From assembly GCA_016207685.1 (NCBI GenBank), contig JACQPE010000068.1, positions 1-48,084 on the forward strand: a stretch of DNA of 48,084 nt, written 5' to 3'. A program made the translations under genes and the position numbers. The notes beneath the pieces are model-generated. The model saw only the letters and a program-made list of their open reading frames with translations. It had not been told where the DNA came from and made no database searches. Of this stretch, positions 29,229 through 29,574 are shown piece after piece (positions within the stretch are counted from its first letter, which is position 1; each line of letters opens with the position of its first letter). Origin of the DNA: Elusimicrobiota bacterium (lineage in GTDB: Bacteria; Elusimicrobiota; Elusimicrobia; JACQPE01).

Positions 29229-29574
29229 GTTAACCTGAAAAATTTAGGTTCAGTTGAAGTCTAAAGCCCGCTAAAAAAGAAACGCCATCTTACGTATCCT
29301 TTACTGTTTATGTTCCTGACAGAACATAGAAAAGGAGGTAGAGATGGCGCAAGGAAAGATTACATCATTACCCCAGATTCCGCAACTGCGGAATCTGGGT
29401 CTAACGACAATGTTTACTTCACAAAATATCAACTGTGGTGCAGTTGGGACTGGGTAGATGTGAATCAGAACCGGGGGTGATTATCGAACGAAAAACAATC
29501 TCAAAAACCTGGGACTAAATAGTACAGCCGGCTCAGAGGCAAGAGCGGGGGGTGACTGAATTTTTCAGGTTAAC
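29229..29574 (+). ncRNA. Candidate structured RNA or MITE-like element bounded by a 16-bp perfect inverted repeat; class not recognised, strand uncertain
   Basis: GTTAACCTGAAAAATT (29229-29244) is the exact reverse complement of 29559-29574. Fully nested inner helices:
- 29251-54/29555-58
- 29267-72/29544-49
- 29283-90/29342-49 (8 bp)
- 29297-302/29331-36
- 29309-15/29322-28 (7 bp)
- 29358-66/29457-66 (9 bp with a 1-nt bulge)
- 29372-82/29389-99 (11 bp perfect, 6-nt loop)
- 29430-35/29441-46

The element sits in a 516-bp convergent spacer that appears less GC-rich than its flanks. Confidence 0.4.
29344..29457 (+). CDS. 37-codon small ORF (MAQGKITSLPQIPQLRNLGLTTMFTSQNINCGAVGTG) inside the structured element
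   Basis: AAAGGAGGT lies 5-6 nt upstream of ATG 29344 and is the strongest SD in the window. The ORF is below the 60-aa cutoff of the ORF track. The ATG lies in the 3' arm of the 8-bp helix, part of the SD lies in the AAAGGA/TCCTTT helix, and the 11-bp hairpin is inside the ORF. Coding status is therefore doubtful. Confidence 0.25.
   Translation: MAQGKITSLPQIPQLRNLGLTTMFTSQNINCGAVGTG

Follow-up and report, generated by a model that had tools for sequence, protein, structure and literature searches.

A 336-bp element between udk and holB of an Elusimicrobiota bacterium, a probable miniature derivative of an IS1380-family insertion sequence

What is the strongly folded segment that lies between the convergent genes udk and holB in an Elusimicrobiota bacterium? 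The question was raised by positions 29229-29574 of contig JACQPE010000068.1, whose positions 1-48,084 are called the window here. An earlier note, made from the letters alone, had described a perfect 16-bp closing helix around nested hairpins and had offered three identities: a large structured RNA of a kind not yet described, a housekeeping RNA that had diverged or, with the least weight, a miniature inverted-repeat transposable element (MITE). Our comparisons argue that the last option was essentially right. Positions 29234-29569 (336 bp) are, with high probability judging from sequence, a non-autonomous, internally deleted, MITE-like copy of an insertion sequence (IS) of the IS1380 family, placed in the udk-holB spacer at a TTAA site. 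The element is ordinary decayed mobile DNA, of an already known kind.

Fold, relatives and ends of the element

The closing helix was borne out: 29229-29244 (GTTAACCTGAAAAATT) is the exact complement of 29559-29574 over 16 bp, and a repeat finder lengthened the terminal pair to 29229-29247 and 29556-29574 (19 nt, 95%). The nested hairpins were all recovered. The three-tier hairpin appeared in the minimum-free-energy fold, its CGCCATCT/AGATGGCG pair being also found by the repeat finder, and the 11-bp perfect hairpin is present, although its length had been understated, the arms being 13 bp (29372-29384 and 29387-29399). Such an arrangement had been called unlikely by chance, and a shuffle control agreed: folded as plus-strand RNA, 29229-29574 reached -119.5 kcal/mol against -81.9 ± 4.4 kcal/mol for dinucleotide shuffles (z = -8.5), and none of 100 shuffles folded as well. 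The structure of the element is real and not a product of chance. The minus strand gave z = -8.7, and this equal stability of both strands points to DNA palindromes and not to a strand-specific RNA, so that the fold is no evidence for RNA. With the terminal repeats taken off (29250-29553), z was -4.1. The G+C content of the element is ~41-43%, against ~55% in the flanking genes.

A search with the 19-mer GTTAACCTGAAAAATTNAG in a set of genomes, one for each species, returned 27 loci, 8 of them in Elusimicrobia RIFOXYA12_FULL_51_18 (RIFOXYA12 hereafter), whose udk is 71% identical to that of the window. A repeat of ~234 bp (GTTAACCTGAAAAATTCAGTTGAATTTTTCCC...GGATTCGGGTTAA) occupies many intergenic sites in that genome; the ends of these miniatures read CCTGAAAAATTCAGTTGAATTTT, and they have only the first ~28 nt in common with the window element, the interiors being unrelated. 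The same 19-mer found 28 loci in metagenomes. One of them, on a soil or aquifer metagenome contig (L038), is a TTAA-flanked inverted pair 1,561 bp apart that delimits an IS at 392-1952, with CCTGAAAAATTCAGTTGG at both ends. The pair encloses an open reading frame (ORF) of 445 aa that scored 242 bits against NCBIfam NF033539 (IS1380 family transposase; cut-off, 180 bits) and 147 bits against Pfam PF13701. Relatives of this transposase numbered more than 1,000, mostly on contigs of ~1.5-2 kb, as is typical of repeats; two are named 'IS1380 family transposase [Elusimicrobiota bacterium]' by NCBI, and 120 proteins of the family (P0121-P0240) were compared. Viral contigs gave no match to the 19-mer, a 21-mer or the 28-nt palindrome described below, and a homologue of the complete element turned up in none of the genome, metagenome and viral collections searched.

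Compared with these relatives, the 16-bp helix breaks down into one chance G:C pair, a palindromic target-site duplication (TSD) of 4 bp and 11 bp of terminal inverted repeat (TIR). The earlier note had seen no TSD. It is there, inside the helix, and was missed because TTAA is palindromic and merges into the inverted repeat. Without the TSD, the element runs from CCTG to CAGG, with TIRs that begin CCTGAAAAATT, and the features at its two ends are as follows.

29230-29233, no strand: left TSD, TTAA, directly abutting the element end
29234-29259, plus strand: left TIR, CCTGAAAAATT-(TAGGT)-TCAGTTGAAG, compared with the L038 and RIFOXYA12 ends
29555-29569, minus strand: right TIR, ACTGAATTTTTCAGG (inward reading CCTGAAAAATTCAGT), with 19-20 nt, including TTAA and C, identical to the L038 and RIFOXYA12 ends
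29570-29573, no strand: right TSD, TTAA, directly abutting the element end

Relative to the family consensus CCTGAAAAATTCAGTTGR, the left TIR is perfect over its first 11 nt and then carries a 5-nt insertion. The right end together with TTAA is identical to both L038 ends over 20 nt, and the left end over 16 nt. The consensus end is TTAACCTGAAAAATTCAGTTG. At unselected related ends the outer tetranucleotide was TTAA (10 cases), CTAA (5) or TTAG (3), besides singletons, and because both this tetranucleotide and the base that precedes it vary, they belong to the target DNA and not to the element. TTAA flanks the window element on both sides, as it does the elements of L038, L070 and L072 and unselected miniature copies, and one copy on a long contig (L056, 3646-3830) has the non-palindromic direct repeat CTAA...CTAA, which fixes the length of the duplication at 4 bp. 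The TTAA of the window is thus a direct TSD of the length usual in the family (4-5 bp).

Three other interpretations of the ends were considered and rejected. An apparently conserved G before TTAA, taken as part of the element, proved to be an ascertainment artefact of the search pattern, since unselected copies have C, T or A at that position. A 2-bp TA duplication, raised by mismatched outer bases on short metagenome contigs of one IS, was ruled out by the CTAA/CTAA copy of L056; the mismatched short contigs are probably chimeras across copies. An IS200/IS605-REP (RAYT) origin, raised by small palindromes in the ends, was dropped in view of the DDE IS1380 transposase found between the same ends.

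Transposase relics in the interior

The features between the two TIRs are these.

29283-29349, plus strand: hairpin in the leader of what was once the transposase gene (the three-tier hairpin), from minimum-free-energy folds
29333-29338, plus strand: Shine-Dalgarno (SD) sequence AGGAGG, followed after 5 nt by the ATG (29344), an arrangement also present in L038, L061, L064 and L070
29344-29457, plus strand: relic ORF of 37 codons, MAQGKITSLPQIPQLRNLGLTTMFTSQNINCGAVGTG and stop, a fusion in frame of the first ~9 and last ~18 transposase codons
29372-29399, no strand: perfect 13-bp palindrome, CCCAGATTCCGCA-AC-TGCGGAATCTGGG (28 nt), from the repeat finder
29430-29554, plus strand: 3' end of the transposase gene and 3' non-coding region of the IS, by blastn to L038 and L061

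The 37-codon ORF reads MAQGKITSL-PQIPQLRNLG-LTTMFTSQNINCGAVGTG, its C-terminal codons being ...FTSQNINCGAVGTG-stop. In a tblastn alignment, the C-terminal 19 aa of the L038 transposase (GLRLFFSTAQSNCGAVETG) matched those of the window ORF (GLTTMFTSQNINCGAVGTG), both running to the stop codon. Among the 120 members compared, N-termini follow the pattern M..KITSLL (MANHKITSLL in P0219, MAQKDVTSLL in P0238) and C-termini read ...FPSQKINCGAVGTG up to the stop, P0220 being 80% identical to the window ORF over 15 aa (E = 9e-7). These matches at both termini indicate that the ORF is the start of a transposase gene joined in frame to its end. At the nucleotide level, window positions 29430-29574 matched L038 1809-1952 (68.5% over 146 nt, E = 5e-8) and L061 2814-2920 (68.8% over 109 nt), and the SD-ATG-(K)(I/T)TSL stretch aligned with the left end of the L038 IS. 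The interior therefore holds, from a parent IS, the right 146 nt, the SD/ATG/KITSL region and the N- and C-terminal codons. Nothing beyond the relic ORF was found when the transposase was run by tblastn over the window, and the 336-bp element, with this ORF only, has no functional transposase. Neither the relic ORF nor any other spacer ORF has an entry in a collection of 15 billion proteins, a Pfam search of the spacer ORFs gave no match, and a 71-aa reading frame of the spacer used as query had no homologue. The 28-nt palindrome stands exactly at the internal-deletion junction, between the N- and C-terminal relics, and has no counterpart in the full-length relatives; it may be repair filler or a separate insertion.

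Comparison with the relatives shows that the element shares their ends and 4-bp TSD and originated from a transposase-bearing IS. On this reading it inserted at a TTAA between the convergent udk and holB genes, with duplication of TTAA, and nearly all of the ~1.34-kb transposase gene has been lost; both TIRs, the 5' leader with its hairpin, 9 N-terminal and ~18 C-terminal codons in frame, and the untranslated 3' end were left. The closing helix is then TSD plus TIR, DNA signals for transposase binding and not an RNA helix; the first of the two domains described within it is a hairpin, probably for translational control, taken from the parent IS, and the second is built around the deletion-junction palindrome. 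Movement, if any, would depend on a DDE transposase supplied in trans by a full-length relative in the same cell, which would bind the CCTGAAAAATTCAGTTG ends and, by cut-and-paste chemistry with a 4-bp staggered cut, integrate the element at TTAA or YTAR. This copy may already be immobile and decayed, because its left repeat has a 5-nt insertion and its right repeat is degenerate after 15 nt.

Several observations weigh against this identity. There is only one copy in the 48-kb window, to which the count refers, the host genome lying outside the GTDB representative set scanned with one genome per species; a strict multi-copy miniature repeat family is thus unproven for this sequence. A full-length IS of the clade is absent from the same 48 kb. 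No empty site, for which the junction sequence CAGAAGAATGGTTAACAGCGCAATTTT would be expected, was found among the closest udk homologues, which are at most 77% identical and lie in other gene neighbourhoods. A simple deletion does not account for the 13-bp junction palindrome. Finally, the interior still folds better than its shuffles, and neither the frame of the mini-ORF nor its perfect ribosome-binding site has been lost, so that a secondary exapted role is conceivable.

As to the genomic setting, the closest udk homologue is 77% identical, and the contigs that carry the closest ones (P0002, P0005 and P0008) have other neighbours and nothing like the spacer. The exact holB protein was found on one Logan contig, identical to the window and representing the same locus, and the exact udk protein had no record. 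Reads and assemblies of SRR12113385 and of its sibling SRR12113383 contain the organism or relatives of it. Elsewhere in the window, 32425-32446 and 32497-32518 form a 22-nt inverted repeat (82%; GAGACTACGAGATTGCGAGATT/AATCTCGCAATCCCTCAATCTC), just upstream of the minus-strand start (32421) of a UDP-GlcNAc 2-epimerase-like gene.

Other copies of the family provided additional observations. Units of ~35 bp at L035 746-785 and L060 1048-1085 consist of two abutting TIRs, TTAA-CCTGAAAAATTCAGTTCAACTGAGTTTTTCAGG-TTAG (flanks TTAA/TTAG), and represent an extreme of miniaturisation in this family. A palindromic target of ~30 bp, CGCGTTATATCCG-TTAA-CGAATATAAGCGA (380-396 and 1953-1965), has the L038 IS in its middle, and in L050 and L027 element ends are inserted beside other ends; together these insertions hint at a preference for palindromic or already occupied sites. 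The GTTAACCTGAAAAATTCAGG end is found with different interiors in L012, L013, L018 (Bacteroidota bin P01_F01_bin.120), L040, L047, L049, L055 and L058, and since the same end recurs in repeat families of unrelated phyla, the transposase clade and its miniatures appear to cross phylum boundaries. In L063 (1073-2925, on the Elusimicrobiota metagenome-assembled genome JBAZKS010000002.1) a TIR-like sequence lies 428 nt upstream of the transposase ATG, versus ~75-100 nt elsewhere, and the right end of the IS is degenerate (CAGAACTTTTCAGT); this copy is possibly a nested or rearranged element.

The leader hairpin and the rival explanations

In the leader hairpin, CGCCATCT (29283-29290) pairs with AGATGGCG (29342-29349), the stretch containing the start codon, and TCCTTT with the AAAGGA of the SD sequence; written as RNA, CGCCAUCU pairs with AGAUGGCG (start codon) and UCCUUU with AAAGGA (ribosome-binding site). 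An equivalent hairpin, of different sequence in each case, was present in all 5 full-length relatives examined, at the approximate positions ~450-505 in L038, ~1440-1510 in L061, ~1425-1510 in L063, ~240-295 in L064 and ~490-560 in L070. In these relatives CCAU pairs with AUGG and an anti-SD stretch with GGAGG, as in CCAUCG.CUCGCU/AGCGAG.CGAUGG (L038) and GCGCCAU.UUGC/GCAA.AUGGCGC (L064). A consensus fold had compensatory changes at 11 of its 17 pairs, a value that is indicative only, coming from six sequences in a rough alignment. The pattern suggests that the hairpin is probably a conserved translational brake on the transposase of the clade, burying the ribosome-binding site and the AUG, and the relic in the window has inherited it though it no longer codes for a transposase. 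Translational sequestration in the leaders of bacterial transposons is known from the fold-back inhibition of IS10 and similar schemes. As in IS10-type leaders, the hairpin of this clade pairs the transposase start codon and the SD sequence, and within the clade it is conserved with covariation; unlike in them, the hairpin of the window guards a 37-codon relic only. As far as we have checked, we know of no experimental demonstration of leader sequestration for a member of the IS1380 family.

Could the whole segment nevertheless be an RNA gene, for a large structured RNA so far undescribed or for a diverged housekeeping RNA, with the 16-bp helix closing a multi-domain fold? Its very low folding energy, the helices nested without conflict, its place in a spacer between convergent genes and the structure left in the interior once the TIRs are removed would all fit. 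Against this, the reverse strand folds equally well, as DNA palindromes would, the closing helix is TSD plus TIR and is common to transposase-bearing elements and to miniatures with other interiors, the interior is made of transposase-gene relics, and the entire element has no homologue in the collections searched. Rfam 15, which includes RNase P RNA, tmRNA, 6S, SRP, OLE, GOLLD, HEARO and ROOL, had no family that reached its gathering score anywhere in the window; the earlier note had not matched RNase P RNA, tmRNA, 6S or SRP RNA by eye. When E values up to 10 were admitted over 29100-29700, only noise appeared (E of 0.5 or worse, scores far under the cut-offs), the best matches being mir-1290 (18.9 bits against a cut-off of 82) and preQ1-II (16.5 against 47), the latter due to the AAAGGAG motif of the SD sequence. 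ARAGORN detected no tRNA and no tmRNA. No homologue was found that keeps the complete fold and has compensatory changes along the long-range helix, covariation being confined to the IS leader hairpin. Both RNA options have thus been largely refuted already, and we give them hardly any credence.

The remaining explanations assign the segment a present function. The relic might have been exapted at the RNA level, its structure acting in udk/holB read-through transcripts as a terminator, an insulator or a 3'-end stabiliser, a kind of role already suggested for other miniature repeats of bacteria (REP, ERIC and Correia elements). The position between convergent genes, the strong structure predicted on either strand and one terminator-like site inside the element, on the minus strand, are consistent with such a role. 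We nonetheless judge it improbable: promoter and terminator scans counted no more sites than in shuffles, conservation at the locus is without evidence, an IS does the least harm by landing in a convergent spacer, and a host function is not needed to explain anything here. It is very improbable that the 37-codon ORF is a functional small-protein gene, encoding a hok-like type I toxin or a micro-peptide that regulates transposition, even if AGGAGG lies 5 nt from the ATG, the frame is intact across the deletion, and an SD sequence and AUG held in a hairpin, with long 5'-3' pairing, recall the architecture of hok-type mRNAs. The peptide lacks the hydrophobic helix of a type I toxin (hok/sok-like), both its ends are transposase termini, its SD sequence and hairpin were inherited from the IS, and it has no Pfam match, no entry among the 15 billion proteins and no homologues. 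The deletion derivative of an IS1380-family IS remains the identity that accounts for ends, interior and leader alike.

Relation to known elements and significance

Within the IS1380 family (IS1380, IS1247, ISEcp1 and the L038 clade, of ~1.56 kb with a 445-aa transposase), TIRs likewise start with CC; the ends of ISEcp1 start CCTAG.... The short TSD is a further likeness, being 4 bp here and 4-5 bp as the norm of the family, in which IS1247 has inverted repeats of 16/13 bp and a direct repeat of 5 bp (PMC3281130). With the L038 clade the window element has in common 19-20 nt of identical ends, the relics of the transposase start and stop codons and both untranslated ends; unlike it, the element is devoid of transposase, measures 336 bp instead of ~1,560 bp, has a left repeat interrupted by 5 nt and contains the 28-nt junction palindrome. 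Bacterial MITEs (Correia, IS630- and IS5-derived) and the ~234-bp repeats of RIFOXYA12 are, like this element, small, non-coding, intergenic and strongly structured by prediction, with the TIRs of an autonomous IS and a TSD. The element differs from the RIFOXYA12 repeats, which form a multi-copy family, in an interior that is unrelated save at the ends, and from classic MITEs in that an in-frame mini-transposase ORF still betrays its parent.

A further likeness is to eukaryotic piggyBac elements (TTAA, CCC...GGG). Precise excision is a hallmark of piggyBac. The bacterial clade has a TTAA TSD and CC(T/C)G...C(A/G)GG ends, as seen in L038, L070, L072, L056 and L039 (13208-13440), and differs from piggyBac in that some copies have the target relaxed to YTAR. 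In the literature, piggyBac has been paired with IS1380-like prokaryotic elements (PMC5718144), and IS1380 serves as outgroup to piggyBac (PMC10813416). An AlphaFold model of the clade transposase, of moderate confidence (pLDDT 65, pTM 0.71), retrieved the Tn5 transposase first in a fold search (E = 1e-7, TM 0.45), followed by piggyBac 6x67 (E = 1e-5, TM 0.36) and piggyBat (4e-4), so that the search does not discriminate between Tn5 and piggyBac; a sequence-profile search of the PDB with the transposase family found no relative. A TTAA target for a prokaryotic IS1380 element was not mentioned in the literature searched, whose scope did not include ISfinder, and no novelty is claimed. It is a tentative proposal, which could well prove wrong, that the element belongs to a bacterial IS1380 clade abundant in Elusimicrobiota and in metagenomes from groundwater and soil, whose members have a 4-bp TTAA (relaxed to YTAR) TSD and piggyBac-like CC...GG ends and have given rise to miniatures as short as ~35 bp.

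The locus also carries a caution. A perfect long-range helix, nested hairpins and a z of -8.5 mimicked a new large RNA when each piece was a standard part of a decayed IS, and a palindromic TSD can hide the diagnostic mark of transposition inside an inverted repeat. For the annotation of Elusimicrobiota, the gain is a non-autonomous IS1380-family element, which explains the oversized udk-holB spacer. If the probable role of the leader hairpin is true, the IS1380 family would have, in this conserved sequestration of SD and AUG, a translational brake that has not been described. The TTAA/CC...GG signature fits the proposed kinship of IS1380 and piggyBac, and if TTAA targeting is indeed undescribed for prokaryotic IS1380 elements, the clade would offer a compact bacterial model for the origin of piggyBac-type targeting.

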